Assembly: GCA_051002135.1 (NCBI GenBank)
Contig: JBPCMQ010000004.1
Location: forward strand, 2,095 to 66,094
Direction: 5' to 3'
Length of the DNA stretch: 64,000 nt
From: Chloroflexota bacterium
Lineage (GTDB): Bacteria; Chloroflexota; UBA5177
The notes under the pieces are model-generated. The model ran no database searches and was not told the origin of the DNA. It saw only the letters and a program-made list of their open reading frames with translations. The position numbers and the translations under genes are program-made. Shown here piece by piece: positions 1-32,982 of the stretch (positions are counted from its first letter, which is position 1; each line of letters starts with the position of its first letter).

Positions 1-1669
1 CGGCCGACTGGCACTCGTATATGACTTGATGGAGCCGCTCCGTCCAGAGGTCGATCGGTATGTGTTGGAAGTTGTTCGAGAGCATACGTTTGCGCCAAAT
101 GATTTTCTGATCACAGCGCGGGGAATGGTGCGCCTGCATCCGCAAACCTATAACACCGGCAACGACTTCATCTACCGAGATGACTACGCACATCCCCTCG
201 ATGCTTACCTCGTCTTAACGGGCCAAAAGGACTTGGATGGAAACCTATTAACGAGTAACCCCGAGACAAGTGGACGTTATCACTCGTCATGGCTTTCGAT
301 GATGTATCCCCGCCTTTTCCTTGCGCGTCAACTCTTACGAGAGGACGGCGTCATCTTCGTGAGCGTCGATGACCACGAAGAACATGACTTACGTCTCCTG
401 ATGAACGAGATCTTCGGGGAAGAGAACTCCCTGGGCACGCTCGTGTGGCAATCAAAGAAAGGGGGTGGCGGCGACAGCGGAAATCTAGTGCAGGATAACG
501 AGTATGTTCTCTGTTATCGCGGAACCAATAACCCACATTGTCTATCGAGGGTTGAGATCGCAGCAGAAGAATTGGATAGGGTGGACGTGAAAGGGCCGTA
601 CCGAAGAGGACGGGAGCTTAATAAGTGGGGTTCTGGTTCGAGACGCGACGATCGTCCTACGATGTATTTTCCCATTCCAGGCCCCGACAGCAATAGCGTG
701 TACCCCATCCGGAATGACGGCAGCGAGGGCCGTTGGAGGAAGGGCCTCAAGAAAATGCTGGCTTTAGTGAATCGAGGCGATGTGGAGTTTGAACAAAGAC
801 CAGATGGAAGCTACATCGTATACGAAAAGATTCGATCAGCCGATCCTCGCTTGAAACCATACCGGACGTGGCTCACCGATGTGGGCACAACAGCCGATGG
901 GTCGAAGACTGTGAAGGAGTTGTTTGACGGTCGCTCCGTCTATGACTACCCGAAGCCGGTTGCGCTCCTCAAGCGTCTCATCTTCATGGGCACAAATGGT
1001 GATGATGACTTAGTTTTAGATTTCTTTGCTGGATCTTGCACTACCGCTCAGGCTGTTCTCGAACTGAACCGTGAGGATGAAGGATCAAGGCGGTTCATCT
1101 GTGTACAGGTACCTGAGCCGTCACCGCTTAAATCCGAGGCACGAAAGGCTGGTTACGGAACGCTTGCCGACGTTGGCAAAGAGCGCATCCGGCGAGTAAT
1201 GTTTCGCATGAATCAGGACAGTGCAAGTGCCCTTGACCTCAGGGAATCTGACGAGCCCGAGGACCTGGGGTTTAGGGTTCTCAAACTCGTTCAGTCGAAC
1301 CTGCGAGGCTGGAATGCAGTTGCTGCTGGTACTTCACCGACTGAATACGCTAGCCAGCTTGAGATGCTCGAAGATCCTCTCGTGCCAGGGTGGATGCCTT
1401 TGCAGGTCATCTATGAGATTGCCATTAAGGAAGGCTTGAGCCTGACGTTCGCGGCAGAAGAGGCAATCGTGGACGGCGTCACGATCTGGAACGTGACCGA
1501 TGACCAGACTGGACAGGGAATCAAAATATGCCTTGACGATGCCCTCTGCCTGGACACGGTTCGAGCTTTGGATCTGACCAAGGAGGATCGATTCATCTGC
1601 CGTGATATCGCGCTCGATGACACAGTCACGGCGAATCTCGCCCTCCAATGTCACTTGAAGACGATCTAG
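1..1669 (+). CDS. mod: Type III restriction-modification DNA methyltransferase (Mod subunit), 5'-partial: the reading frame is open to the window edge
   Basis: C-terminal FxGxG-like SAM motif 'LVLDFFAGSCTTAQAV'. Beta-class N6-adenine methyltransferase architecture, with the expected DPPY motif lying upstream of the window. Its stop (1667-1669) abuts the GTG start of the downstream res gene. Confidence 0.8.
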   Translation, partial: GRLALVYDLMEPLRPEVDRYVLEVVREHTFAPNDFLITARGMVRLHPQTYNTGNDFIYRDDYAHPLDAYLVLTGQKDLDGNLLTSNPETSGRYHSSWLSMMYPRLFLARQLLREDGVIFVSVDDHEEHDLRLLMNEIFGEENSLGTLVWQSKKGGGGDSGNLVQDNEYVLCYRGTNNPHCLSRVEIAAEELDRVDVKGPYRRGRELNKWGSGSRRDDRPTMYFPIPGPDSNSVYPIRNDGSEGRWRKGLKKMLALVNRGDVEFEQRPDGSYIVYEKIRSADPRLKPYRTWLTDVGTTADGSKTVKELFDGRSVYDYPKPVALLKRLIFMGTNGDDDLVLDFFAGSCTTAQAVLELNREDEGSRRFICVQVPEPSPLKSEARKAGYGTLADVGKERIRRVMFRMNQDSASALDLRESDEPEDLGFRVLKLVQSNLRGWNAVAAGTSPTEYASQLEMLEDPLVPGWMPLQVIYEIAIKEGLSLTFAAEEAIVDGVTIWNVTDDQTGQGIKICLDDALCLDTVRALDLTKEDRFICRDIALDDTVTANLALQCHLKTI

Positions 1670-4369
1670 GTGGCTCTGATGGAATTCAGATTTGACGCCA
1701 ACCAAGCGTTCCAGACAGAGGCGGTCGATGCAGTCGCTGACCTCTTGGATGGTCAACCCCTCGTCACACCTGATCTGACCCTTGCCCTAGGTGGCGGATT
1801 TGCCGCCGTTGGGAACCGGCTGGACTTGAGCGAGGGGACGATCCTGAACAACTTGCGGAACTTTCAGGAGCGAAAGGGCATCGAGGTAGATAAGACACTG
1901 AACACTATCGATCAAGATATCGAGACGGCTGACGGTAGGAAGCTGGTCAGCTTCCCCAACTTCTCCGTGGAAATGGAAACTGGTACCGGAAAGACTTACG
2001 TCTACATCCGAACCGTTCTCGAACTCTTCTCGCGCTATGGTCTCCGCAAGTTCATCGTGGCGGTGCCCAGTGTCGCGGTGCGGGAAGGTGTGCTCAAAAC
2101 CCTGCGCATGACGCAGCAGCATTTTCGGGAACTCTATACCAACGTTCCCTATCGGTACTACGCCTACAACTCGGAGAACTTGACGCAGATCCGGAGCTTC
2201 GCTTTGTCAGACAGTATCGAGATCATGATCATGACGCTCGATTCGTTTAACAAGGCGGGAAACGTATTTTGGCGAAGCACGGATCACTTGCAAGGCGAGA
2301 CACCGGTTCATCTCGTCCAGGCCGCTCGCCCCATCCTCACCCTTGACGAGCCGCAGAATATGGAGAGCGAAAAGAGCATCGCGGCCCTGGCTGCACTCGA
2401 TCCTCTCTTCGCTCTCCGGTACAGTGCGACCCACCGCAACGCCTACAACCTCGTGTATCGCTTAACACCCTTCGATGCCTACCGACAGGGCTTGGTGAAG
2501 CGGATCGAGGTTGCCTCGGTGGTCAAGGACGATGACTTCAATCAAGTCTTCTTGCGGCTGGAGGATATCAAGGCGCAAAAGAAGACAGTCTCCGCTCGCC
2601 TCGCGGTCCACCAACTCATGAAGGACGGCAGCGTCAAAGAGAAGGTAGTCACGGTCAAGCCTGGAGACTCGCTGGAGGACAAGACTAAACGACCGGAGTA
2701 CGCTAGCTTCGTTGTTGACGAGATCAACCCTGGTAGCGAAAGCGTGTGCTTCGCGAACGGGATCGAGATCGGGCTTGGAGAATCCCAAGGGGCTGACAAG
2801 GAAGCGGTATTCGAAGCGCAGATCCGGTACAGCATCGAAGAGCATTTCCGAAAGCAAGCTCGGCTGAAACCGCACGGCATCAAAGTCCTCTCGCTCTTCT
2901 TCATTGACCGAGTAGCGAACTACGCCTCCGAGGATGGCATTATCCGGCGTCTCTTCGATGCGCAGTTCGAGTCGATCCGGCAGCGGTATCCCGACTGGTC
3001 GGATATCGATTCGGCTTCTGTGCAAGCCGCGTACTTCGCTCAACGTCGCTCTACGGGGGGAGAGGTCATCTACGAGGACAGCACGACTGGCGCGGCAAAG
3101 AAGGACGAGGAGGCATACGACTTGATCATGAAGGACAAAGAGCGGCTACTCTCCTTCGATCAGCCGGTCTCGTTTATCTTCTCCCACTCGGCCCTCAGGG
3201 AAGGATGGGATAACCCGAACGTCTTTCAGATCTGCACATTGAACCAGACAACGTCCGAGATGAAGAAGCGCCAGGAAGTCGGTCGTGGGATGAGGCTGGC
3301 GGTGGATCAAACGGGCGAGCGTGTCTGGGACGAGCACGTCAATATTCTGACCGTCGTGGCAAACGAGAGCTACGACCGCTATGTCTCGACGCTCCAACAG
3401 GAAATCGAGGCCGACCACGGCAAATCGGGGCTGCCGCCGAGGCCGAAGGATGCGAGGAAGCGGGGAATTGCTCGTCTCCGCAAGGAGTACACGCTGCGAC
3501 CGGAGTTTCAGGAGCTATGGCAGCGGATAAGTCCCAAGACCCGATATGCGGTTCGCGTTGACACCGAGACGCTCATCCAGCAGGTGGTCGGAGACTTGGA
3601 CAAAGTTCAGATCCGTCCTCCCCAAGTCGTTGTGTCCAAGGCGCGGGTGGCGGTCGATGACGAGGATCGTCTGCATTCGATTCGGCTGACCGGTGACAAG
3701 GGCGTGCTGGATCTGAGCAAACGGCACACCCTCCCCAACGTCATCGGCATCATGACCCACCTGCTGGAATTCACCACTCCACCGATTCGTCTCAGCCGAT
3801 GCACCTTGCTTGAGATCTTTCGGCGCACGTCGAATCAGCAAGCGGCACTCTCCAACCCTCAAGAGTTTGCCGCGGTGGTGGTCCAGATCCTCAAGTCCCG
3901 CCTAGCGGATCAACTCGCCGACGGCATCCAGTACGAGAAGATCAACCAGTGGTACGAGATGACCCAGTTCGACGCCGAGATCGAGAGTTGGGAGGACCAT
4001 CTCGTGCCGGCGGACCACGCCCTCTATGACTACGTCATCTACGATTCAGCCGTCGAGCGGCAGTTTGTAGAGGATCTCGAAGGCCGTGATGACGTACGCC
4101 TCTACATCAAGCTGCCGAACTGGTTCAAGGTGCCGACTCCGGTTGGAGAGTACAACCCAGACTGGGCAATCGTGATGGAGGATCGCGACGAACACGCCGA
4201 CACGAATGGCAAGCCGCTTCTCTATCTGGTGAGAGAGACGAAGTCCACTACGAACATGGACGATCTGCGACCCGATGAGCGCAGGAAGATCATTTGCGGT
4301 GGGCGGTTCTTCAGGGAAGCTCTAGGCGTCGAGTACACCGTTGGTCCAGAAGCCGCCACACTACCATGA
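1670..4369 (+). CDS. res: Type III restriction enzyme Res subunit (SF2 helicase + PD-(D/E)xK nuclease)
   Basis: Walker A 'METGTGKTYVYI'. DEAH-like motif II 'LTLDEPQNM'. Helicase C motifs 'REGWDNPNV...QEVGRGMRL'. C-terminal nuclease motif 'YNPDWAIVMED...VRETK'. GTG start immediately after the mod stop. Confidence 0.85.
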   Translation: MALMEFRFDANQAFQTEAVDAVADLLDGQPLVTPDLTLALGGGFAAVGNRLDLSEGTILNNLRNFQERKGIEVDKTLNTIDQDIETADGRKLVSFPNFSVEMETGTGKTYVYIRTVLELFSRYGLRKFIVAVPSVAVREGVLKTLRMTQQHFRELYTNVPYRYYAYNSENLTQIRSFALSDSIEIMIMTLDSFNKAGNVFWRSTDHLQGETPVHLVQAARPILTLDEPQNMESEKSIAALAALDPLFALRYSATHRNAYNLVYRLTPFDAYRQGLVKRIEVASVVKDDDFNQVFLRLEDIKAQKKTVSARLAVHQLMKDGSVKEKVVTVKPGDSLEDKTKRPEYASFVVDEINPGSESVCFANGIEIGLGESQGADKEAVFEAQIRYSIEEHFRKQARLKPHGIKVLSLFFIDRVANYASEDGIIRRLFDAQFESIRQRYPDWSDIDSASVQAAYFAQRRSTGGEVIYEDSTTGAAKKDEEAYDLIMKDKERLLSFDQPVSFIFSHSALREGWDNPNVFQICTLNQTTSEMKKRQEVGRGMRLAVDQTGERVWDEHVNILTVVANESYDRYVSTLQQEIEADHGKSGLPPRPKDARKRGIARLRKEYTLRPEFQELWQRISPKTRYAVRVDTETLIQQVVGDLDKVQIRPPQVVVSKARVAVDDEDRLHSIRLTGDKGVLDLSKRHTLPNVIGIMTHLLEFTTPPIRLSRCTLLEIFRRTSNQQAALSNPQEFAAVVVQILKSRLADQLADGIQYEKINQWYEMTQFDAEIESWEDHLVPADHALYDYVIYDSAVERQFVEDLEGRDDVRLYIKLPNWFKVPTPVGEYNPDWAIVMEDRDEHADTNGKPLLYLVRETKSTTNMDDLRPDERRKIICGGRFFREALGVEYTVGPEAATLP

Positions 4370-4407
4370 CCGCCGTTCTGCCCCCGACCCAAAGTCTGCC
4401 GTAAAAG

Positions 4408-5703
4408 ATGACCAGAGACGACCCGACACTTCTCGGTCGAGGATTGCAGGGTAGCAGCCCTCCGCACCGTGACGATCACAAGCGGGTACTCGTGCCGCTT
4501 GAAGCCTGGGAATACAACTCGCCCTTGCTTAAGATTGAAGGGAAGAGAACGGACCTGGGACTCCTGGCAGAAGCACTCCTGTATTACGACCAGGTCTTCG
4601 TCGATATTCAAAGCGAGCACCAACTCGAAGACCTCTTGCGTTGGGCAATCGAGCGCGACCATATTAATTCGCTGCTTACCTTAATTCATGAGGGCGTGCT
4701 CAAGTTCCACTATCACGCTTTCCTCACCACTGCGGTAAGCACCGAAGGGGTTTTCCGATTACTCCATATCGAGGATACAGCGCAAGCACGAGGGGCCTCC
4801 TTCCCTGAAAAGATCATTTACCGCGCCGATTACTCGTGCCTCCACGCGAGGAAACAGAGGGCTCTCATCCAAGAAATAGAGCGGAACTACGTGGAGGCGA
4901 AGGTAGATAACTACGAACTCCCAATTGAAGACGCCAGACGAGCGTTAGGTGACCCCGAATACTGTAGCCAGTTACTTCAGACATTCATTGATGACCTGTA
5001 TCGCGGTCTCCACCTGGGCAAGCCCCCGCAGGTTTCCTGCGAAATCGAGCAAGTTAGTCCGGAGACCTACACGATCAAGTGGAATACCGACTTCACCCAG
5101 ATCACAAACATGACCTCTGGAAAGCTCGACTTTCGTCCGGACATTCCGATCATCGGTGAGGCTCACACCAACCGCTGCATCATGACTGCCATTCGCAATG
5201 GGCTGGATCTTTCTCTCGGCGATGTGATGGCTACCCTAGCTGGCAACAAACTGGTCGAGGCAAGCGAGCACTCAGGTCGAGTTAGAGAGATCATACAGGA
5301 ATTGAAGATCGAAGTGGAGTTCCCAGACGTGCGCGGACTCGTCAACTCCGGCGACATGTATCTCGACACGGTGCTAGAAATTCGGGCGAAATCGAGCAAA
5401 TTCCGAGGGTGGCTTCAGCAGGAAGGCGACAAGGATCGCAATGCGCTGTCAGCGTATCACAACGAAGTTGCGCAAGCGTCGGGCGTAGCTAAGCAAGGAG
5501 TCGCGACCTTAAAGTTATTCGGAATCCTTAGTTCAACTGGTGCCGCCGCTGCGCGGGTAGTCGATCCAACTGGCGCTGTCAGCACTGCTCTAACCGCCAC
5601 CACAGGTGTCACTAATTTTCTCGGATTCATCGGAGACCGGCTCGTGAAAGATTGGAAGCCGGTTGTGTTTGGGGACTGGGTAAAGAAGCGTCTGGACAGT
5701 TAG
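4408..5703 (+). CDS. Hypothetical protein, third gene of the type III R-M operon (no recognisable domain)
   Basis: 431-aa ORF with an ATG 38 bp after the res stop, on the same strand. Visibly lower GC than the rest of the window. No motif I can assign. Confidence 0.6.
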   Translation: MTRDDPTLLGRGLQGSSPPHRDDHKRVLVPLEAWEYNSPLLKIEGKRTDLGLLAEALLYYDQVFVDIQSEHQLEDLLRWAIERDHINSLLTLIHEGVLKFHYHAFLTTAVSTEGVFRLLHIEDTAQARGASFPEKIIYRADYSCLHARKQRALIQEIERNYVEAKVDNYELPIEDARRALGDPEYCSQLLQTFIDDLYRGLHLGKPPQVSCEIEQVSPETYTIKWNTDFTQITNMTSGKLDFRPDIPIIGEAHTNRCIMTAIRNGLDLSLGDVMATLAGNKLVEASEHSGRVREIIQELKIEVEFPDVRGLVNSGDMYLDTVLEIRAKSSKFRGWLQQEGDKDRNALSAYHNEVAQASGVAKQGVATLKLFGILSSTGAAAARVVDPTGAVSTALTATTGVTNFLGFIGDRLVKDWKPVVFGDWVKKRLDS

Positions 5704-6018
5704 GATCGGCGCATGCTCCTCCCCCAACGCATCTCCGCGTGCGCCGGCTGCTTCCTACAGAACGCCCGCTTGTCGCCCGGATTTGCCCACGCCTCGACTA
5801 CTGCCCAAGCTGCCTGCTTGCGTCGATCAGGCACTGACTTGTCACGGCGCGAAAGGGTGCTTGAAAGAGTTATCAACGTGTTTGTCTTTGCGAAATCGAA
5901 GAGCATCACGGAGACATTATCTTTTAACCACCACGCATTCACTCCGTGTAGTCAAAAATGGTGCCTTGAGTAGATAACGCTATACCCCGCCGTCCGTCCC
6001 AGCCCCTATGGTTCAGGC

Positions 6019-6132
6019 TGTCCATGACGGAGATCGTACGCGTCGCGTGCGTCTTCCCCTGCGACACGCACGGCCTGTCCATGACGGAGATCGTACGCGT
6101 CGCGTGCGTCTTCCCCTGCGACACGCACGGCC
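6019..6132. repeat. Near-perfect 57-bp tandem direct repeat, 2 copies
   Basis: 'tgtccatgacggagatcgtacgcgtcgcgtgcgtcttcccctgcgacacgcacggcc' occurs at 6019-6075 and again at 6076-6132. Each unit contains an imperfect internal inverted repeat. Confidence 0.9.
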
Positions 6133-6363
6133 ACGGGGGGTAACCTCTCACTCGCTTCAAACTGACGGTCGTATCTTGACACCTTCTATTTGTCAAGTGT
6201 TCGGCTCGACGTGCGCCGCTGGCTAAGTCGTGTCAAGCCTTGATGTGATCCCGTCTCTCACTCCGTCAATCTTTCCCATGTCAAGTTGACACGGGTACGT
6301 CTCTATGCATGGTCGTGGATTGAGCGACACTACATCAACTCACCTTCGGTGTGTCACTGAGGC

Positions 6364-6556
6364 CACGGGCGCTCGGTCCCACGGCCCGCACAGAGCCTCA
6401 GAGAGCCCGATTCATCGACCCACACGGGCACCCGGACGGCACGCCCCACGTCCTCGCGGACAGCACGGGCACTCGGTCCCACGGCCCACACGGGTCCATA
6501 AGAGCCCGATTCTACGATCCTCACGGGCACTCGGACGGCCCGGAAGTATTGACAGG
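6364..6556. repeat. Degenerate ~95-bp tandem duplication built of four 'CACGGGCRCYCGG...' half-units
   Basis: Units 6364-6463 and 6464-6556 align by eye ('cacgggcgctcggtcccacggcccgcaca...agagcccgattc...cacgggcacccggacggc'). The duplication ends in a perfect 9-bp-arm hairpin, GGAAGTATT-N8-AATACTTCC, at 6541-6566. Confidence 0.7.
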
Positions 6557-7107
6557 GTAATACTTCCATGCGATGAACGCAACATGAATCGGAGGGACAC
6601 TCGCCACCCCTCTAACAGGAGTACACCAACCATCGCCGGTGCGCCGCTGTTCTCGCTCTGTCAATCCTAGCAGGTCGCATGAAGTCTTGCTCTGTTCATG
6701 CTGCAGGCGGGCGTAGAGCGTGCCACAAGGCGCCCCTACCGTTTCGCAAGGAGTGCCCGATGGCAATTGCACAAATGGACCGCGGCACAAAATGTCAGCC
6801 GAAAGTCGTCCGACTGACGCCGAGCACACTTGACACGCTCGATATCATGGGGGACTGCCTGCTCAACTTCTCGTTGGAGCAGCGGCAGAGACAACAGCGC
6901 CGAGGCGGAGGTCCACCCGTGAGCTACGCGCTCGCGCTGGGAAACGCGGTGCACGAAACTGTCGCACAGATGAATCGTTTGCTCGCGGCCGGACGCCCCC
7001 TCCCGCCGCCCGTTCAAGAAGGTCGCGCCAGTGGCTTGATGGCATTGATTCGCAACATCCGGCGCGAGTCTGCCGGTCTTAGACGGACGAGAAGCCGTGT
7101 TGGCCGC

Positions 7108-9684
7108 CTACGGCCAGCGCACCCTCGCGTAGTTCCAAACCTCTTCCATAGACAGCGCCACCGTTTGGTTGTTGGCTCGAATGAACAACTGCTGCCCTTT
7201 GTCGTCGGTCACAAATGCGGGACGGGGCGAAGGCTTGATGGAGACTTCGCACACCTCTTGGCCGCTCGCATTGGGGAAGGTGATGCGGATGAACGCGCTC
7301 AAGTCTTTCCCGTAGGCGTTCAGCAATAGGTTCGTTAGGTGTAGCTCGAAGCCATCGCGACCAGGCTTCTTGGTGAGCGACTCGTAGTCGTGTGCCAAAC
7401 CCAGGGCCGTCCCGATGTCGTCAACCCCGATCAGCAGGACGCCGCCTGCCACCGAGTTGAGGAAGCCGGCAACGGTCTTCACGATGACCTTCTCGAGCAC
7501 CGGATTGACCTTGTTCTCCCGCATATCCCAACGTAGGGAGGACTTGAACTCGAGTGTCTCGCTCTCTCCTCCGGCGATCAAAGCGGCCACGCCAGACGCG
7601 GGCGCGGGAGCAGGGGGCGCGGCGCCAAGGTAGGTCAACTCCCCGAGCTGGGCCGGCTGCAGCTTGTCGAATTCTTTCTGCAGAACCTTTAGGTATCGCC
7701 ATTCAATGCCGGTTAAGAGGGTCGCGTTCTCGCACCAGATCTGGGCCGCGCGGTCCTTGTGCGCAACGTCAATATCCTCTCGCCCCTTGGTCTCGATAAG
7801 ACAGTGAATCTCGTCGGCGGAAACGGCGACGAAGTCGGGCTCGTAGTACCGGAGGTTGGCGGCGGCGTCTGTGTACTCGATCGTGAAGCCGAATTGAGAG
7901 GGCATCTTGGCGAACCGGAGCACGTCGCTCGCGTCTTCGAGAAAGCCGGCAAACTGTCGTTCGAACTCGTTGTCGCAGGCAACGAGGTTGAAGACGGTCT
8001 TCGTAGCGGGTCGGGTCGGACGCGAGAAGGGGAAAGGCAAGACCTGCGAGAGCCGGCGATCGCTGAGGATGAGCTCGGGTGTCTGCTGCTCAATGACAAG
8101 GGCGCGAAGCGCTGCCGTGAAGGATTTGACGGTGACGTACTGAGCGACGCTCGTGGAGATGGCCTTGAGAATGATCGGGTCGTAGAGGTCGGCGGGCTCG
8201 CCAAAGGCGCGTTCCGCGAGAAATTCTCGTACCTTGGGGACTAAAGCCGCAAATTGAGAGGGCAGCTTGACATCTTGCGCGATCCGCTTTGCATAGTAGG
8301 AAATGACTTCCTCGGGTGTCTGGACCTCGGGTATGCTGTAGTCGCGGTCGACGACCTTCTCTAACGTGATGATGTCGTAGCCCTCGTAATGGAACTCCTT
8401 GGCGGCGGCATCGTTCTGCGTCTTGGGCAGGGGAGGGCACGTCATCTCGCGGACGTTGAGGCCCTCGATCTCCTCGGTGAGGGTCTTCTTGCGGGACAAG
8501 ATCGGACTCAGCTGAGGCATGGCTATGTCCTTGCCGAGCTTGTCTTCGTCAGGCTTGATGACGACGATCTTGACCTTGTCGCCGGTCAGATCGAAGGTTC
8601 CGAGCTCGAGCACCTCGTCACGCTCCAGCTGTTCGACGAACTCGATAAAATTCTTGTTGCCTATCACGTCAACGCGCTCTTGGTACAGATTGCCCAGGTC
8701 GCGAAACATGAGGCGAAGGCCGCGCCCCACGGTCTGCTCGGGAAGAATATTGGCCTTCGCCTTGTATGGGCGTAGGCCGACAACGACCGTGACGTTCTGG
8801 ACGTCCCACCCCTCCCGCAACATAAGCACGCTCACGATGGCATTGACGGGACTCTCAGCCTCGTCAACCTCGCGAGCGACCCGCCGGGCAATGTCAAGGT
8901 CCTTGTCTGAGACCTCTCCGGACCGTTTCGTGTGGATCACCAGAAGTCTGTGGCCTCCAAACTCGCTCGGGTACTTTGTTCGGAGATAGTCTCCCACGTC
9001 ATCGGCCTCGCTCGTGTCGTGCATCATGACGAAGAGGATCGGCGTCTTTCCGAGTGGCTCCAGCTGCTCGCGATACTCGCGCCAGCGCTCCACGGCAGCC
9101 GTCAAGTAGGCCTGGTAGCGTGTGCTGGCGACGTCGGATGGCTGTTCTCTAATACCCCTCGCGATGCCCTTCATCGGCCGCTTCACGACATTGTCAAGGA
9201 TAGCTTGCTTGAGCGGATAGTCATAGACGGTCCAGGTAAAGAGACTGCCCTTGGGGTACCGAGGCGTGGCCGAAAAATCTAGTTGGGCCGCGAGACCTCC
9301 CGGGTTGTCCACGTGGAGGCGACGGATCGCCCGGCTCCACTCGCTCTCCTCGTCGTGCGTGTGATGAGCTTCGTCGTTGATGACAAGGCAGGGAGACTTG
9401 CGCGACGCGATGCGCTCGTCGAAGTCGTCGATATCAGACATCTTCGCCGGCGGCTTCGGGCCGAGGACCGCCGTCATTGCCTCGGGTTCGCCGTCGGCGC
9501 CATTGACCGAAGACCGATCATAAATCTGCTGTATGTTCGTCAGGTAGAGCGCGCCTTCCGACCCGGCACGTTCATTTTCACCCCTGAGATAAACGTCGAC
9601 GTCCCAGAAGATTTGGAAGTCCGGCGGGATCACCGGATCGGATCGGAAGACACGGCCGGCCGCGAAGTCTAGACGGGGTGGCTA
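7108..9684 (-). pseudogene. N-terminally truncated SF2 helicase-nuclease (type III Res-like) with a C-terminal AlbA_2/Schlafen-like domain
   Basis: The frame opens only ~16 codons above a GTG at 9633. DEAH box 'LVINDEAHH' lies ~90 aa from the N-terminus and no Walker A is present. Helicase C 'LMLREGWDVQNV...QTVGRGLRL'. PD-(D/E)xK 'YEPDFVAV...IETKG'. C-terminal 'ESETLEFKSSLRWD...' is the AlbA_2 signature. Confidence 0.6.
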
Positions 9685-9781
9685 ATGTTCGTACCTAAGT
9701 GCACGTACAAGGATCCTTGTTCGGAGAGAAGCTCATGGATAATCAGCAGTCTCTCATACATCATCTGCAGGTAGGAGTCTA

Positions 9782-11503
9782 GATTTCGGCATTCTCGAGG
9801 AGGCCGAGATCGACGAGGCGCAGGAGGCCAAGCTCGGCCGCCTCTTCGCCCAGCAGTACGAGCTGATCACCCGCGAGGAGCGCCTCGATATCGTGGGCCG
9901 GGACATCGTCGACCACTTCCTCGGCCGCGGCTTCGCCGGCAAGGCCATGGTCGTCTCCATCGACAAGGCCACCGCCCTCCGCACCTACGACAAGGTCCAG
10001 AAGCACTGGCAGGCACGACTCTCCGCCAAACTAGCCCGCCTCGCGAACGATGCACTCTCTGAAGAGGAAGCAGAGCTCCTCCACGAGGAGATCGCGTGGA
10101 TGCAATCCACCGACATGGCGGTCGTCATCTCCTCCTCGCAGAACGAGATTGCCGAGATGGCGGAGCGTGGACTCGACATAACCTCGCACCGGCGGCGGAT
10201 GGTCGAGGAGGATCTCGACGAGAATTTCAAGAATCCGGCAAATCCCCTGCGGATCGCCTTTGTCTGCGCCATGTGGACCACCGGCTTCGACGTGCCCTCC
10301 TGCTCGACCATCTACCTCGACAAGCCGATGCGCAACCACTCCTTGATGCAAACCATCTCCCGCGCCAATCGCGTGTTCCCCGAGAAGAACAACGGCGTGA
10401 TCGTCGCATACGTCGACGTCTTCCGCGATCTCCAGAAGGCGCTGGCGCTCTACGCGGTCACCGGGGGCATCGGCAAGGGGGCCATCGACACTGGTGTCCT
10501 CCCCATCGAAGAGAAGGCCGTCTTGGTCGACGAGCTCCGGGACGCGGTGGACGATGCGGTCTCGTACTGCTCGAACCGAGGAGTGCTTCTTGGCGCTCTC
10601 ACCGGCCTGCAGGGGTTCGAATTCGTCCAGGCGGCCGGCGACGCCGTCGAGCAGCTGATCGTCAACGATGAGGAGAAGGCGGCATTCCTCGACCACGCCA
10701 AGCTGGTCGACCGGCTCTTCAAGGCCATCCTGCCCGATCCCAGCGCCTCCGAGTTCGGCCCGATGCGGGGGGTCCTCGTCCACCTGTCCCGCACCATCGC
10801 GGACTTCTCGCCGCGGGTCGACGTGAGCCCGGTTCTGCGTCGCGTCGAGCAGCTCCTCGACGACTCGGTTGCCGCCAAAGCCTACGTGATCCACGAAGAC
10901 CGCGCGCCCTATCAGATCGACCTCAACGACGTGGACTGGCAGGCGCTCGAGCAGACCTTCCAGCAGGGTCACAAGCGCACCGCGGCCGAGCGGCTCCGAT
11001 CAATGCTGACCACCCGCGTGATGAACCTCGCCCGCCTCAACCCGACGCGGACCGACCTCCTCGAGCGCTTCCAACGACTGATCGACGAGTACAACGCGGG
11101 CTCGAGCAACGTCGAGGAATTCTTCCAGCGGCTGATCGCGTTCACCAAGGACCTCACCGCCGAAGAGCAGCGTACCGTCGCTGAGCATCTTACCGAAGAG
11201 CAGCTCGCCGTGTACGACCTCCTGATGCGTCCCTCGCCCGAGCTGAGCGACGCCGAACAGTCGCAGGTCAAGCGGGTCGCCGAGTCGTTGCTCGACGTCC
11301 TCAAACGCGAGAAGTTGGTCCTCGACTGGCGCAAAGAGCAGCGCTCCCGCGCCTCGGTGCGGCTGACGGTCGAGGAGAAGCTGGACGAGCTGCCGGAGAC
11401 ATTCACCCGGCAGCTCTACGCACAGAAGTGCGACGTCGTCTACCAGCACGTGTTCGACAGCTACTGGGACGACGGGCAGAGTGTTTACGACCGGGTTGCA
11501 TGA
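9782..11503 (+). pseudogene. hsdR: Type I restriction enzyme HsdR, C-terminal fragment lacking the nuclease domain and helicase motifs I-II
   Basis: HsdR-specific motifs 'IVDHFLGRGFAGKAMVV' and 'LRIAFVCAMWTTGFDVPSCSTIYLDKPMRNHSLMQTISRANRVFP'. The frame opens at 9743 after a TAA. There is no start codon before 9893, and homology begins around 9782. Confidence 0.7.
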
Positions 11504-12714: not shown

Positions 12715-12830
12715 GAGGTGCAGCTAGGGGAGCGCGTTTTTCGCGCTGAGAGTGTGGCTGAGGCCGCAGACCCTTGAACCTGATCCGGGTAATTCCGGCG
12801 TAGGGAAGACTCCAAGCGACTTTCCGCTCC
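12715..12830 (+). promoter_or_regulatory. TPP (THI-box) riboswitch
   Basis: 'ctaGGGGaGC...GCTGAGAgtgtggctgaggccgcagACCCTTGAACCTGATCCGGGTAATTCCGGCGTAGGGAAG' is a near-consensus THI element, sitting directly upstream of the 12841 operon. Confidence 0.85.
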
Positions 12831-12840
12831 CACCTGCGGT

Positions 12841-13932
12841 GTGAGCGGTTATTTTTTGGAGAGTCGTGTGCGGGGTGAGCTGAGACCGGCTGCCGGCAAG
12901 GTGTCGAGCTCGCTGTTCGAGCGGGTCATCAAGCCGTCGCTCGGCGCGGGTCGCCACGACGTCGTGGTGGGTCCGCGGTCTGGGGTCGATGTGGGCGTTC
13001 TCAATATTGGGAGCGGACAGGTCATGGTGCTGACCTGCGACCCGCTGTTTGTCATGCCGGCATACGGGTGGCGCCGCGCGGCCTGGTTCGCGGTTCATAT
13101 CGTTGCTTCAGACGCGGCGACGTCGGGTCTCTGCCCCAGCCTCTGCGCGATCGACCTGAATCTCCCTCTGGACATGACCGACGACGAGCTGGCCCTTTTA
13201 TGGGAGGGAATCCACGAGACCTGCCGGGACACCGGCGTCGCTATCGTAACCGGACACACCGGAAGGTACGAAGGGTGTGCGTACCCCATGCTGGGCGCGT
13301 GTACGATGATGAGCATCGGCTCCGCGGATGGATACGTGACGCCGGACATGGCCCGCGTTGGGGACGAGGTGGTCATCACCAAGGGTGCGGCCATCGAGAC
13401 GACGGGGCAGCTGGGCGTCGTTTTCGAACGTCGCATATGCGATGCTCTCGGTCCCGACGTTGCGCGTGAAGCCGCCGCGCTGTTTTTTCACATGTCCGTC
13501 GTGAAGGATGCGTCCATTGCCGCCGAGATTGGGGTACGCGACGCGGGCGTCACGGGCATGCACGATGCTACCGAGCGCGGTGTGTGGGGCGGGCTGGTGG
13601 AGATCGCGGAAGCAGCGGGGGTGGGATTGACGATCGATGGTGACGCCATTCCGGTTCGACCGGAGGTCGCTGCCGTTTGCGGTCTCTTCCGTATTGATCC
13701 GTTCACGGCGAGCAGCGAGGGGACGCTCCTCATCACCTGCCGGCCATCGAAGGCGGCATGCCTGGTCCAACGACTGCAAGATGAGGGAATCCAGGCCGCA
13801 CGCATTGGCGAGGTGCTGCCGCCGGAGTGTGGGCTGTCCGTGACACTCGAGGGCCGCGCCACTCGCTTGCAGTCTCCGGAGACGGATCCCTTCTGGCCCG
13901 CGTTCACGGCTGCCCTCGAGGAAAGCCGATGA
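12841..13932 (+). CDS. AIR synthase-related protein (PurM-like superfamily; HypE/ThiL-like fold), first gene of the TPP-riboswitch operon
   Basis: 'VHIVASDAATSGLCP' and 'GVAIVTGHTGRYEGC' match PurM-like N- and C-domain signatures. It lacks the SelD Cys/Sec loop. Confidence 0.7.
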   Translation: MSGYFLESRVRGELRPAAGKVSSSLFERVIKPSLGAGRHDVVVGPRSGVDVGVLNIGSGQVMVLTCDPLFVMPAYGWRRAAWFAVHIVASDAATSGLCPSLCAIDLNLPLDMTDDELALLWEGIHETCRDTGVAIVTGHTGRYEGCAYPMLGACTMMSIGSADGYVTPDMARVGDEVVITKGAAIETTGQLGVVFERRICDALGPDVAREAAALFFHMSVVKDASIAAEIGVRDAGVTGMHDATERGVWGGLVEIAEAAGVGLTIDGDAIPVRPEVAAVCGLFRIDPFTASSEGTLLITCRPSKAACLVQRLQDEGIQAARIGEVLPPECGLSVTLEGRATRLQSPETDPFWPAFTAALEESR

Positions 13933-14705
13933 AGCTCGAGGCGGCCGCGGTCTCGAAACACTTCCGCCTCGATGGCGGAACGCTCACCGCACTCGAGAAC
14001 GTATCTCTTTCGGTGCGTCCGGGAGAATTTGTCAGTCTTGTCGGGCCGAGCGGCTGCGGCAAGAGCACGCTCTTCAACATTCTGGCCGGGTTGGAGCTTC
14101 CGGACGGCGGCAACGTTCGTATCGACGGCATGGACGTGACGGGGCGCCTCGGTCTGGTCGCTTACATGCCGCAGAAGGATCTCCTGCTGCCGTGGAAGTC
14201 CGTGCTGGACAACACGGTTGTTGGCGCGCGGCTGAGGGGAATATCGAAGGCGGATGCGCGCCGGGAGGCTCTTGCCTGGTTCCATCGCTTCGGGCTACAG
14301 GGATTCGAGCGTTCCTACCCGGCAGCGCTTTCGGGAGGCATGCGGCAGCGAGCAGCGCTGCTCCGCACGCTGCTGTGCAGGCGGGAGATCCTGTTGCTCG
14401 ATGAGCCGTTTGGGGCGCTTGACGCTCTCACGCGCATCGACATGCAGACGTGGCTGGTTGACATACGCCGCGAGCTCGACAACACGATCGTGCTCATTAC
14501 CCATGACGTGGACGAGGCCATCTATTTGTCGGACAGGGTATTCGTCATGAGCTCTCGACCCGGACGCGTGCTCGCCGATGTACCGATCCTCGTCGAGCGA
14601 CGGGGTGAACACGAGGAGACCGCGACCTCACCGGCGTTTGTAGGGGTGAAGCGCGATCTTCTGCGTCTGTTACGTCCCAATGGGGCTCACGAGGAGGTAG
14701 CGTGA
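13929..14705 (+). CDS. ABC transporter ATP-binding protein, NitT/TauT family (ThiZ-like)
   Basis: Walker A 'GPSGCGKST'. Signature 'LSGGMRQR'. Walker B 'LLLDEPFGALD'. H-loop 'ITHD'. ATGA overlap with the upstream gene. Confidence 0.85.
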   Translation: MKLEAAAVSKHFRLDGGTLTALENVSLSVRPGEFVSLVGPSGCGKSTLFNILAGLELPDGGNVRIDGMDVTGRLGLVAYMPQKDLLLPWKSVLDNTVVGARLRGISKADARREALAWFHRFGLQGFERSYPAALSGGMRQRAALLRTLLCRREILLLDEPFGALDALTRIDMQTWLVDIRRELDNTIVLITHDVDEAIYLSDRVFVMSSRPGRVLADVPILVERRGEHEETATSPAFVGVKRDLLRLLRPNGAHEEVA

Positions 14706-15607
14706 GCAGAAGCCAATCTCGCGCCCCGTCCCGAAGGGTGGAGGCTGAGAAGATTCGCGGACATCGCCTGCTGCGGCTCGTCCCGCCGATTGCCCTGGTG
14801 GCCGCCGCGCTCTCGCTATGGGAGGCGGTGGTCGATATCCGCCACGTCCCGGATTACCTTTTGCCCGCGCCGTCCGAGATCTGGCGGACGACGCTCAGTG
14901 AGCGTGATCTCCTCTTCGTCAATACCCTCCCGACACTGGAGATTGCGGTTCTGGGTTTTTCTCTCGCCCTTGTGGCCGGTCTCGCCATCGCTCTTGCCAT
15001 TCACTTCTCGCGAGCGGTCGAGCTTGCGTTCTACCCGATGGTCATTGCGTCGCAGGCAGTCCCCGTGCTCGCACTCGCGCCCATCCTGGTGATTCTCATG
15101 GGATTCTCGATCTTCCCAAAGCTCGTGGTGGTGGCTCTGATCTGCTTCTTTCCCATCACGGTCAATGCCGTGGACGGGATGAAGAGCGTCGATCGCGATC
15201 TTGTCAACCTGATGCGGACGATGGGCGCCAACCGCTGGCACGTTCTGCGCGACGTGGAGCTTCCGACCGCGCTACCTTTCTTTTTCTCCGGCGCCAAGAT
15301 CGCGGTGACCTTCAGCGTCGTTGGATCGCTCTACGGGGACTGGGTCGGCGGCTCGTCAGGGAGCCTGGCGCTGGTGATCATACAGGCTCAGTCCCGGTTC
15401 GACACGGCGGTGCTGTTCTCGGCCATGGCCATCCTGACGATCATCGGCGTTGCGCTCTTCGCGCTGCTCTCTTTCGTGGAATGGCTTGCGATGCCGTGGC
15501 GCCGCGCCCAGCGCTTTCCCGCCGCGGGACATCAAGATCCAAAGACATCTGACCAGGGGGATGAGCGTGTCACGGACGGACAGAGGAACAGGGAGAGATA
15601 TGCGTAA
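14702..15607 (+). CDS. ABC transporter permease (BPD_transp_1; ThiX/SsuC-like)
   Basis: Six predicted TM helices. GTGA overlap with the ATPase gene. The C-terminal ~40 aa may be run-on sequence. Confidence 0.8.
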   Translation: MSRSQSRAPSRRVEAEKIRGHRLLRLVPPIALVAAALSLWEAVVDIRHVPDYLLPAPSEIWRTTLSERDLLFVNTLPTLEIAVLGFSLALVAGLAIALAIHFSRAVELAFYPMVIASQAVPVLALAPILVILMGFSIFPKLVVVALICFFPITVNAVDGMKSVDRDLVNLMRTMGANRWHVLRDVELPTALPFFFSGAKIAVTFSVVGSLYGDWVGGSSGSLALVIIQAQSRFDTAVLFSAMAILTIIGVALFALLSFVEWLAMPWRRAQRFPAAGHQDPKTSDQGDERVTDGQRNRERYA

Positions 15608-16619
15608 AACACAGCGAATCGGCGTAAGAGTCGTGCCGGTCCTGCTTGCGGGGTACCTCGCGCTCGGCGGCACAGCGGGCTTGGGACATGGCACCGCGGC
15701 CGGCCTCCAGCACGCGTCGATCGTGCTGGACTGGTATCCCAATTCCGATCATGGTGGTCTCTATACAGCTATCCGGCAGGGATTTTTCCGGAAAGCCGGA
15801 ATCGACATGACCGCTCGCGTGCCGTCCGATACCAGCGCGCAGATTCGACTCGTCGCTGCTGGGGCTGCCGACTTTGGCATTTCCTATGAAACCGATCTAC
15901 TGGCTGCCCGCGCGCACCGCATCCCGGTCCGTTCGGTGATGTGCATCATGCAGCACCCTCTCGACACCGTCATGACGTTACGAACCTCCGGCATCACGCG
16001 TCCGCGCCGGCTCGCCGGCCACAGCGTCGGCATGGCCGGATCTCCCAGCGATGAGCCCATCGTCAGTGCCATGATGACGCACGACGGCTCGTCCATCGGT
16101 CGGGCGCACATGGTGAATGTCGGCTACAACCTCTTGCCGGCGTTGCTGAGCAAGAAGGTAGACGCCATCGTGGGCGTGTACTGGACGTGGGAGGCAATTC
16201 AGGCGCGGCAGCGCGGCTACGCGGTCAACGTCATGCGCGTGGAGCGCTGGGGCGTGCCCAACTACTGTGAGCTGGTGCTGGTGGTGAGCGAGCGGACGAT
16301 ACGAACGCGGCCCGGGTTTGTCCGGGCGACCGTGCAGGCGCTGCAGAAAGGCTATAGGTTGGCCGAAGCGCGTCCGGAGATTGCCGTACGGAGCCTGTCC
16401 GTCGCGGACAGGACGTACTCCAAGGGGCGGAACAAGGCTCTCGTGCTCGAGAGCATACGTCTCCTGCGCTCGGTCGTGGGAAGTGCCCGGACAATCGGAT
16501 ACCAAAGTCCGCCGCAGTGGCGTCACTATGCCGGCTGGTTGGCCAGGAACAAGCTGATTGACGGACGAGTGGATGCCCGCGCCGCCTTTACCAATCAGTT
16601 TCTGGGTCAGATTCGATGA
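15600..16619 (+). CDS. NMT1/THI5-like periplasmic substrate-binding protein (ThiY-like, pyrimidine-precursor binding)
   Basis: Signal peptide 'RIGVRVVPVLLAGYLALGG'. 'LDWYPNSDHGGLYTAIRQGFFRKAGIDM' is characteristic of the NMT1/THI5 family. Confidence 0.8.
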   Translation: MRKTQRIGVRVVPVLLAGYLALGGTAGLGHGTAAGLQHASIVLDWYPNSDHGGLYTAIRQGFFRKAGIDMTARVPSDTSAQIRLVAAGAADFGISYETDLLAARAHRIPVRSVMCIMQHPLDTVMTLRTSGITRPRRLAGHSVGMAGSPSDEPIVSAMMTHDGSSIGRAHMVNVGYNLLPALLSKKVDAIVGVYWTWEAIQARQRGYAVNVMRVERWGVPNYCELVLVVSERTIRTRPGFVRATVQALQKGYRLAEARPEIAVRSLSVADRTYSKGRNKALVLESIRLLRSVVGSARTIGYQSPPQWRHYAGWLARNKLIDGRVDARAAFTNQFLGQIR

Positions 16620-30492: not shown

Positions 30493-30833
30493 CGCATCTC
30501 AACTATACAGGAAGGTTGGCAAGGCCATCAAAGTGCCCCATTTCGCACACTCCAAAAGTCGTCGGGACGGTACCGGTCACCCACACGGTTGTCGTGGGCA
30601 GGGGCACACCAGGCGGAACGACGCGTGATCTCTGCGCGACGCGACACAATGGCGGCGCCGGCTCTTTGCCGCGATTCGGGCTCACAATACCTCTCTGCGT
30701 CAGCGGGCATAGTATTGAGCGATGGATAGCAGCCGCGGTCAGCAGATGCAGGCCACCGCCGATGCGATCCTGAATACGTCGGGTTGCTCTGCACCCGCGG
30801 AAACGCCGCGCGGCGTTCGATCGTGCCGAGGCC

Positions 30834-31073
30834 TTGGCTGTGGGTACACGTGAAGATGCCGGCGATCTACAGGAGCCGCTGCTCGGTTTTGTCATGAAGA
30901 TTTGTACCGGTGCATATGAAATCACTGATGGGGACATACAGCGACTCACCGACGGCGGCTATTGCGAGGATGCCATCTTCGAAGCGATTATCAGCACGGC
31001 GGTCGGAGCGGGCATGAGCCGCCTGGCTCTCGGACTTGCGGCGCTCAGGTCAGGGGACGATGGATGCGTCTGA
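30834..31073 (+). pseudogene. C-terminal fragment of a carboxymuconolactone decarboxylase (CMD/AhpD-like) family protein
   Basis: 'ITDGDIQRLTDGGYCEDAIFEAIISTAVGAGMSRLALG' resembles a CMD C-terminal helix pair. No N-terminal part in frame. Confidence 0.4.
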
Positions 31074-31630
31074 AGAACGTGGCCACGAAGTTCGACGCAA
31101 GCTGGCTTCCAGACGGTGCGCCTGAACCCCGCGATGTTGTCAAGACCTTGAACTACCGAAAGAATCTTTTCGGCAGACCATTCAGCCACGCCCTGCAAGA
31201 TGTCATGCGCGGGCCCTCGCACTGGAGCGTGGGAGATCGGGAGCTGATGGCCGCTTTCGTGTCCCGCCAAAACAAATGTGCATACTGAACTTCGGCCCAC
31301 GGCGCGGTCGCGTCGCTTGCCTTAGAGAATGAGGAGCTTGTTGGGGCCGTTCTCGATGACCTGGAGACGGCGCCCATTGCGGATTCCCTGCGAGCCACCC
31401 TACGTTTTTTGGCCAAGCTCACACTGAGCCCGGACACGATCGAGGGTTCAGACGTGCATGACGTGCGGGTTCAGGGTGTCAACGACCACGCAATCTCCGA
31501 CGCCATTCACGTTTGCGCTCTGTTCAACATGATTGATCGCTGCGCCGATGCACTTGGTTTTGAGGTCCCGATCGGCCACCCGGGCCGGTACCTCCTCGAT
31601 CATGGCTACCTGGGCATGGGAAGTTAGCAC
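31064..31630 (+). CDS. AhpD-like / CMD-family peroxidase-related protein with an in-frame UGA (candidate selenocysteine) at 31286-31288
   Basis: ATG at 31064. The same frame continues through TGA to a stop at 31628-31630 (189 codons). The CMD catalytic motif reads 'VSRQNKCAY[TGA]TSAH', so TGA replaces the second Cys of the family's C-x-x-C...H motif. The C-terminal half is 'ISDAIHVCALFNMIDRCADALGFEV'. Confidence 0.55.
31294..31321 (+). promoter_or_regulatory. Candidate bacterial SECIS hairpin
   Basis: 12 nt after the UGA lies a 6-bp stem, CGGCGC/GCGUCG, with one G-U pair. Its 4-nt apical loop is GGUC, the same as the E. coli fdhF SECIS loop. A lower 3-bp stem sits at 31294-31296/31319-31321, with an internal loop between. 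Confidence 0.35.
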
Positions 31631-31927: not shown

Positions 31928-32413
31928 ATGGAATATGACTCTCCACCAAATCGGCAACCTTGGAAGTATCGCCGCCTACAAACCTACGATTATTCCAACC
32001 CGGAACACGCCTACTTCGTCACCGTGTGCGCGCGACGCCACACGCGTCCTTTCAGAGACTCCCTCGCAGCCGAGGAAGTTATTTCCTAGCGGATGTGGAT
32101 TCGGGATCACCGTGAGGTGGATCTGTATGCCTACTGCCTCATGCCGGACCATCTTCATCTGCTCCTCAAATTGAGGACCAATCGGTGGACGCTCGGGGAT
32201 GTGATCGGCAGCCTGAAGTCATTTACCACGGAGAGAAGCTGGCAATTGGGGCATGAGGGCGCACTTTGGCAGGACAGGTTTCATGATCACATCCTGCGGC
32301 GGAGTGAGGATGGAGATGAGACTGCCGCGTATATCCTGAATAATCCGGTGCGCAAGGGCCTTGTCAAAGATCGTGACGACTATGCCTACAGCGGTACCCC
32401 GGATCCGATGTAG
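31928..32413 (+). mobile_element. REP-associated tyrosine transposase (RAYT, IS200-like Y1 HUH) with an in-frame TAG at 32087-32089
   Basis: N-terminal part 'YDYSNPEHAYFVTVCARRHTRPF'. HUH motif 'LMPDHLHLLL'. Catalytic Tyr region 'AAYILNNPVRKGLV'. Both parts are in the same frame, separated by TAG ('AAEEVIS*RMWIRDH'). Confidence 0.7.
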
Positions 32414-32519: not shown

Positions 32520-32982
32520 CTATGGCTGAGACGCAAGGGCCTCCAACACTTCGCCCGCGTGCTCATCGGGTTTGACTTTGCGCCAAATCCTTTTTATCCT
32601 CCCGTCGCGGTCGATCAAGAACGTGGTGCGTTCGATCCCCATGTAGCGGCCGTGCCATACGCCTCTGCGACACGGTGGTCGGTATCCGCCAGGAGCGCAA
32701 ACGGCAGGTTGTACTTCTCCGCAAAACGATCGTGGGAGACCGTGTCGTCCGGACTCACGCCGAGCACCACCGCATCGGCGCCTTCGATTGATCCGTGGAC
32801 GTCACGGAAATTGCACGATTCCTTTAGCACTGGTGCTCGTATGTGCATCCCGACGTGTCGTCCTTCGGGTAGAAGTACAGGACCACATCTTTTCCCCGCA
32901 GTTCGTCGGGAGAGACAGAGCCGCCTCCAAGCGGGGCATCGTGAAATCGGGCGCACGATCGCCCTCGTTAAGCTGCGTCATG
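32520..32982 (-). pseudogene. bcp: Bcp-type peroxiredoxin (thiol peroxidase) disrupted by at least three frameshifts
   Basis: On the minus strand from ATG 32982: 'MTQLNEGDRAPDFTMP', then 'GKDVVLYFYPKDDTSGCTYE' in a second frame, 'KESCNFRDVHG...VLGVSPDDTVSHDRFAEKYNLPFALLADTDHRVAEAYG' in a third, and 'TTFLIDRDGRIKRIW...' in a fourth. Total ~154 codons, the size of Bcp. Confidence 0.6.

Follow-up and report, generated by a model that had tools for sequence, protein, structure and literature searches.

The window examined in this work is a stretch of 64,000 nucleotides from a Chloroflexota bacterium (contig JBPCMQ010000004.1 of assembly GCA_051002135.1), and the subject of this report is an AhpD-like gene on its forward strand (31064–31627), which is predicted to encode a selenoprotein. 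The gene starts at ATG 31064, 6 nt downstream of the sequence AGGGGA (31052–31057), which resembles a Shine-Dalgarno site and may act as one. It comprises 187 sense codons, if the putative selenocysteine (Sec) codon at position 75 is counted among them, followed by the stop codon TAG (31625–31627). This open reading frame (ORF) contains no frameshift and exactly one in-frame stop, the TGA at 31286–31288, which is found in the context ...SRQNKCAY-TGA-TSAHGAVAS...; if it is read as Sec, the residues flanking position 75 are predicted to be NKCAY-U-TSAHGAVASLALENEELVGAVLDDLETAPIADSLR. In the original prediction, the ORF had been described as spanning 189 codons and ending at 31630. The ORF is real, but its end had been placed one codon past the stop, the 189 codons being the 187 mentioned above, the stop codon and that additional codon. 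The expectation that a standard gene caller would truncate the gene is confirmed by GenBank, where the gene is recorded as two hypothetical proteins of 74 aa (PZR99033.1) and 72 aa (PZR99032.1).

The possibility that the TGA is an assembly error was raised beforehand and was checked on other assemblies of the same DNA. The window corresponds, at 100% identity, to QHBP01000385.1 (GCA_003244175.1, deposited as 'Chloroflexi bacterium' and present also as JGI 3300009400), and is matched at 99.98–100% by contigs of GCA_036790605.1, GCA_036816325.1 and the Logan assemblies SRR33880236 and SRR33880237. The TGA is present in every matching contig that covers the site; because these include four independent assemblies or runs (GCA_003244175.1/JGI 3300009400, GCA_036790605.1 and Logan SRR33880237), an assembly error is excluded. 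As to the assemblies themselves, the window and QHBP01000385.1 are identical over 10,128 bp and then diverge within a conserved stretch of gcvPA (37456/37457 in the window, L004:10128–10401 in the other contig); locus L006 agrees with the window, and the divergence looks like a chimeric join at the contig end of one assembly.

To assign the encoded protein to a family, the TGA was translated as Cys. The protein matched the Pfam CMD domain with 28.7 bits (cut-off 23) and the NCBIfam model TIGR01926, 'peroxidase-related enzyme', with 97.2 bits (curated cut-off 81.8, E = 9.5e-28). It falls outside AhpD proper (TIGR00777, 14 bits against an equivalog cut-off of 191.95) and outside NF041238 (52.7 bits against a cut-off of 175, with only profile positions 223–334 covered). 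Among proteins of known structure, 2PFX and 2OYO, both named as uncharacterized peroxidase-related proteins, and 6K40, the AhpD of Deinococcus radiodurans, were matched at E = 1e-15 to 1e-16, the segment NKCFYCLVAHGA of 2PFX lining up with NKCAY-U-TSAHGA. When the protein is aligned with 13 full-length homologues, its TGA occupies the column of the second Cys of the CxxCxxxH motif, which is nearly invariant, as had been anticipated when the TGA was said to fall exactly where the second catalytic cysteine of the family should be. The first Cys, represented in the window by Cys72 (TGT, 31277–31279), with which the C-x-x-U redox motif begins and which is presumably the resolving Cys, is less strictly kept, being replaced by Ser in two of the 13 homologues. 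The His of the motif, His79 (CAC, 31298–31300), is invariant, and the last base of its codon is also the first base of the hairpin described below.

This hairpin, the core of a putative selenocysteine insertion sequence (SECIS), lies at 31300–31315 on the forward strand and consists of a 6-bp stem, formed by CGGCGC (31300–31305) and GCGUCG (31310–31315) with one G·U pair, closed by the tetraloop GGUC (31306–31309). It is separated from the TGA by a spacer of 11 nt, so that the stem begins at the twelfth nucleotide, and it overlaps the codons for H-G-A-V-A-S. Stem and loop are those reported in the original prediction, and the hairpin belongs to the minimum free energy (MFE) fold of the region; the element is a small hairpin, not a large structure. 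The window contains, on both strands, 368 hairpins with a 6-bp stem and a 4-nt loop, but only four of them have a GGUC loop (about 3e-5 per position), and the TGA at 31286 is the only one in the window that is followed by a GGUC hairpin at such spacing. Three other combinations of a TGA and a hairpin, at 48403, 63066 and 21705, were discarded, as their loops and spacing differ and they are not inside plausible genes. The lower stem with an internal loop that had been proposed beneath the hairpin does exist in the MFE fold of the window, where it may extend over 31290–31325 (GGC 31294–31296 with GCC 31319–31321, and CU 31290–31291 with AG 31324–31325). However, only 59% of the cells at the same columns are paired across the orthologues, and therefore this stem was dropped as a defining part of the element.

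Nine distinct orthologues with a TGA at the same codon and a frame open on both sides of it were obtained by scanning genome and metagenome contigs and by looking up protein matches. They come from loci L001 (Gaiellales), L011/L022, L025, L002, L026, L012, L028 (Myxococcales) and L029 (Sericytochromatia). Their identity to the window protein is about 50–58% over the full length, and the part 3' of the UGA (45–52% identical) is conserved to a similar degree as the part 5' of it. The Sec forms have in common the signature C-x-[FY]-U-T-x-[AS]-H-[GA]-A-V-A-[SA], and U-T...AVA is present also in the window. If the TGA had arisen recently, close orthologues with an intact TGC and no hairpin might have been expected; instead, the three proteins closest to that of the window (from L011, L025 and L001) are all TGA forms. 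Of 88 columns conserved at 90% or more, the window ORF departs from the consensus at 18; six of the eight other Sec forms depart from it at 17–26 and the remaining two at 5 and 9.

At the RNA level, the orthologues conform to the consensus UGA-N11-CG[GC][CU]GC-GGUC-GC[GA][UG]CG, with identical spacing in all nine, and the core in the window fits this consensus exactly. The six pairs of the stem are formed in 54/54 cells (nine sequences), even though the bases that form them vary. At pair 3, six sequences have G·U and three have C-G, a change that turns Gly into Ala and Ser into Ala in the protein; at pair 4, the C-G of eight sequences is replaced by U-A in the ninth, with synonymous changes at third codon positions. 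The observed covariation score was reached in none of 500 shuffles, and pairing fell to 15%–70% when the 3' partner was slid by 1–3 columns. RNAalifold, on its own, predicted exactly the 6-bp stem. As a control, seven homologues with Cys in place of the TGA codon were considered (Cys forms were seen in L003 and L013–L019). They form 2–3 of the six pairs at the same columns, except for one that forms five; none of the seven has the GGUC loop, and the peptide encoded there is variable.

The Sec form extends well beyond these loci. The best 120 matches to a profile of the N-terminal part are annotated as products of 81 or 66 aa, plus a few of odd length, and all of them end in ...N-x-C-x-F/Y immediately before the stop. 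Because they all stop at the same codon, the Sec form is a very large clade, which is routinely truncated by gene callers. One such truncated product, P0127 (112 aa, ENA), has its N-terminal segment duplicated internally before the ...NQCPF end. In loci of the Gaiellales type, two tandem AhpD-like selenoprotein genes follow the partner gene discussed below (L025:9417–10528 and L022:2244–3361; also L001 and L011), each with a UGA at the CxxU motif and a GGUC hairpin; in the first of the two copies, the stem is a variant with a bulged A.

Taken together, these data support the interpretation advanced in the original prediction, and the checks proposed there, as far as they were carried out, agreed with it. 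The TGA at 31286–31288 is almost certainly a Sec codon by descent, accompanied by a conserved SECIS of the SelB type, as judged from the conservation of the TGA among the orthologues and from a covarying hairpin that is restricted to the TGA forms. For the identification of the gene as a whole, with a caveat on its function at the present day, we would put the probability at roughly 85%. That the selenoprotein is still made in this organism appears somewhat more probable than the contrary. Our confidence on this point is lower because the Sec machinery would have to lie beyond the DNA that was searched and because the locus around the gene is decaying.

If Sec insertion follows the established bacterial mechanism, SelB·GTP carrying Sec-tRNA(Sec) would bind the GGUC hairpin at 31300–31315, 11 nt 3' of the UGA and within the coding sequence, and Sec would be delivered to the ribosome at the UGA in place of release factor 2. 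The product would be a CMD-fold thiol/selenol oxidoreductase of 187 residues. The AhpD of Mycobacterium tuberculosis uses its second Cys as the nucleophile and its first Cys to resolve it. By analogy with this enzyme and with the homologues 2PFX, 2OYO and 6K40, Sec75 may stand in for the nucleophilic second Cys of CxxCxxxH, with Cys72 resolving the intermediate as a selenenylsulphide.

On every criterion accessible to sequence data, the gene belongs to a known family, of which it is a further and so far unannotated member; it does not represent a selenoprotein of a new kind. The Sargasso Sea survey (PMC1088965) reported an AhpD-like protein with a CxxU motif, represented by 27 sequences assigned to COG2128, as a family new among selenoproteins, and AhpD-like proteins were the fourth most abundant selenoprotein family, with 299 Sec sequences, in the Global Ocean Sampling (GOS) data (PMC2398784). 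A review of 2026 lists the AhpD-like protein as TIGR01926 with the CxxU motif (PMC13188914). The family, described since 2005, is called 'AhpD-like 1' in the Sargasso Sea and GOS surveys, and the reference to a described bacterial selenoprotein family made when the candidate was proposed was therefore correct. The window gene shares with this family a score above the TIGR01926 cut-off, the C-x-x-U(-x-x-x-H) motif, the existence of paired Sec and Cys homologues, the same length and fold, and a SECIS located directly 3' of the UGA inside the coding sequence and having G in the apical loop. In essentials it does not differ from the family. Its Sec is preceded by Tyr where Phe is usual, and its N-terminus is shorter than that of the 81-aa type; in addition, its partner gene appears damaged, and it comes from a soil Chloroflexota metagenome-assembled genome, while the surveys that defined the family were marine.

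The window gene was compared also with three other systems. The SECIS of Escherichia coli fdhF, as read from the E. coli genome, where the UGA is codon 140, has likewise a GGUC loop inside the coding sequence. The likeness in loop and spacing that had been noted is borne out, the loop starting at +21 from the U of the UGA in fdhF and at +20 in the window, but no conserved lower helix was found in the window element, which is putatively of the SelB-binding type. With the AhpD proteins of M. tuberculosis (TIGR00777) and D. radiodurans (6K40), the window protein shares the CMD fold, the CxxCxxxH motif and the conserved second Cys (Sec in the window); unlike AhpD proper, it scores below the equivalog cut-off and no ahpC adjoins its gene. 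Finally, NF041238, the 'alkylhydroperoxidase-related (seleno)protein' known from the Sargasso Sea as 'hypothetical protein 1', has a CMD-type domain and a motif, C-F-Y-U-T, very similar to the C-A-Y-U-T of the window. However, the window protein matches just the C-terminal domain of this 357-residue, two-domain architecture, and belongs to a different family.

Directly upstream of the selenoprotein gene lies a small gene encoding a protein that resembles half a CMD domain. Its main frame runs from 30777 to 31073 on the forward strand, with callable starts at TTG 30834 and GTG 30840, and its stop codon (31071–31073) overlaps the start of the selenoprotein gene. The core of the protein (profile positions 33–97) is intact in the frame ending at 31073 and scores 59.9 bits against a profile of the partners found elsewhere. 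The probable original N-terminus (MDSSRGQQMQATADAILNTSGCSAPAE) is encoded at 30722–30802, on the same strand but in a different frame; profile positions 1–26 begin exactly at ATG 30722, although this is a weak match from a three-frame search (4.5 bits, E = 0.005). In nearly all the other loci that were inspected, from several phyla, the AhpD-like gene is directly preceded by a partner of 90–102 residues, whether the form is Sec or Cys, and, where gene calls exist, the stop of the partner overlaps or abuts the downstream start (in the window 30722–31073; elsewhere L028:9693–10001; L029:9192–9494; L026:9711–10004; L025:9148–9420; L003:9597–9890; L013:1591–1900). In other organisms, the AhpD-like gene is the second of a conserved two-gene operon, after this small partner. 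The ORF at 30834–31073 was also considered as the C-terminal fragment of a decayed paralogue, but this was rejected, as the same small gene is present upstream of Sec and Cys forms elsewhere. No Pfam or NCBIfam model covers the partner, which shows sub-threshold similarity to the C-terminal part of TIGR01926/CMD and seems to represent an undescribed family. We suggest, quite tentatively, that the AhpD-like proteins of TIGR01926, in both their Sec and Cys forms, might work as a two-component unit with this translationally coupled partner.

Downstream of the selenoprotein gene, a REP-associated tyrosine transposase gene (RAYT, Y1_Tnp; REP, repetitive extragenic palindromic) is found at 31928–32413 on the forward strand and contains an in-frame TAG (32087–32089); this stop was rejected as a possible Sec codon, being TAG and not TGA. 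About 1 kb 3' of the selenoprotein gene, a Bcp/peroxiredoxin pseudogene (32520–32981, reverse strand) is distributed over three reading frames by three frameshifts, and gene calls on L006 and L009 give AhpC-TSA fragments there. Bcp was also rejected as a second selenoprotein, because it keeps its Cys (...DDTSGCT...) and its three frameshifts are true ones. Prx-like and AhpD-like selenoprotein genes were reported as neighbours in GOS reads (PMC2398784), and the Bcp pseudogene may be what is left of a linked antioxidant pair. The view, expressed in the original prediction, that the neighbouring genes are decayed thus holds for Bcp and RAYT, while the upstream ORF is a conserved partner, though probably a frameshifted one. 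The locus adjoins genes for tRNA-Met and tRNA-Ser and toxin-antitoxin-like genes (DUF433, Polbeta).

Other parts of the window deserve a brief mention. A gene of the AIR-synthase family at 12841–13932 was evaluated as a possible SelD and rejected (53 bits against a cut-off of 125); its product remains below the cut-offs for ThiL, SelD and HypE. It is preceded by a thiamine pyrophosphate riboswitch (67.4 bits) and followed by genes for an ABC transporter ATPase, a permease and an NMT1/THI5-like binding protein, and the whole region (12716–16619, forward strand) probably forms an operon for the salvage of thiamine precursors, with a kinase-like enzyme that is unassigned. At one end of the window (26–11503) is a restriction-modification/defence cluster, with an N6/N4 DNA methylase, a ResIII + RE_endonuc protein, a Schlafen/AlbA_2 + RE_endonuc protein and a fragment resembling a type I R subunit; its G+C content is 0.53–0.57, compared with about 0.61 in the rest of the window.

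A number of observations weigh against the interpretation of the gene as a working selenoprotein gene. No SECIS match was found in the window with Rfam at the gathering threshold, and nothing at E ≤ 10 when the search was confined to 31250–31380; bacterial SECIS elements are poorly modelled, and this null result was to be expected. The folding energy of the 66-nt stretch is ordinary in comparison with shuffled sequences (z = +0.89), but it is uninformative for an element of 16 nt and was set aside in favour of the comparative analysis and of the positional background. The bulged U is important in the fdhF SECIS, and the window element, like that of all nine orthologues, has instead a perfect 6-bp G+C stem without it. 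No tRNA-Sec was detected in the 64 kb or in any of the fetched flanks, nor were selA, selB or selD detected in the 64 kb or in the other loci by tblastn with E. coli SelA, SelB and SelD, which matched only the AIR-synthase-family gene mentioned above. The copies of the window are all about 100% identical, and because of this they carry no readable signal of selection within the species. As for the partner gene, its core and its probable N-terminus are in different frames, which makes a frameshift near 30800 probable. Moreover, in haplotype L009 (GCA_036790605.1), a 79-bp deletion (30702–30780), flanked by a 4-bp microhomology (CGTC) in assemblies that are otherwise identical, takes out the presumed start and N-terminus of the partner. 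Finally, the frameshifts in Bcp and the amber stop in RAYT indicate that the locus is eroding.

Much of this would be accounted for if the gene were a relic, in which TGA and SECIS were inherited but productive expression has ceased in this organism. Such an explanation agrees with ours on the identity of the gene and differs from it solely on present-day function. The Sec-decoding trait may have been lost, or may never have been present if the gene was transferred into a variable region beside tRNA genes, or else the operon may be undergoing inactivation together with its neighbours. Besides the damage to partner, Bcp and RAYT and the absence of Sec machinery from the window, this explanation can invoke the position of the gene beside tRNA and toxin-antitoxin-like genes, and the fact that the protein has its nearest relatives in Actinomycetota (Gaiellales) and not in Chloroflexota. 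However, the 564-nt ORF is free of lesions. In the three neighbours, which together amount to about 1,240 nt, there are about 5 disruptive lesions, and at this rate about 2.3 would be expected in the ORF, the chance of finding none being about 0.1 according to this rough calculation. In addition, the SECIS core equals the orthologue consensus, the 18/88 substitutions at conserved positions are not in excess, the gene has its own Shine-Dalgarno-like site, and Chloroflexota includes selenoprotein-rich lineages (PMC13326102). A relic is conceivable but, in our judgement, less likely than a gene that still works.

The remaining two explanations concern the nature of the TGA itself. It takes a single base change to convert a Cys codon (TGC or TGT) into TGA, and the gene lies among pseudogenes, so that the stop might be a plain nonsense mutation in a decaying gene, with a hairpin present by coincidence. 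Yet all nine distinct orthologues, even those closest to the window gene, have TGA at this codon, and hence TGA is the ancestral state of the clade, which refutes this explanation. The retention of the hairpin through compensatory changes and its lack in Cys forms, the low frequency expected by chance (about 3e-5), the U-T...AVA signature of the Sec forms, the absence of any further stop or frameshift and a number of substitutions within the range of the relatives (5–26) all argue in the same direction. The scepticism about a nonsense mutation voiced when the gene was first noted was well founded, and we regard this explanation as hardly tenable. Scarcely more credible is a different decoding of the UGA, either as Cys by a Sec-like tRNA or as Trp or Cys by near-cognate read-through, with the hairpin acting as a stimulator. 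A few bacteria are reported to recode UGA to Cys in a SelB-dependent manner, but nothing in the window speaks directly for this explanation. The hairpin matches the canonical SelB-type element in loop and spacing, the family is catalogued as a selenoprotein family (PMC13188914), and other genes of the window, such as the partner gene with its stop at 31071–31073, end in TGA. Sec thus remains by far the most plausible reading of the codon.

The present results leave the knowledge of selenoproteins and recoding unchanged, and their chief value is for annotation. The public 'hypothetical proteins' of 81 or 66 aa found among the best 120 N-terminal matches are the front halves of AhpD-like selenoproteins. 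As the SECIS is almost invariant, it can be used as a search pattern, and the sequence of UGA, 11 nt and CGNNGC-GGUC-GCNNCG offers a simple and specific means of mending such gene calls. If the AhpD-like proteins do form a two-component unit with their partner, the combination of a broken partner and an intact selenoprotein gene in this locus would represent either a natural uncoupling of the two or a selenium-dependent antioxidant module in the course of being lost. For the organism, the gene suggests that this uncultured lineage of soil Chloroflexota uses selenium, or did so until recently.

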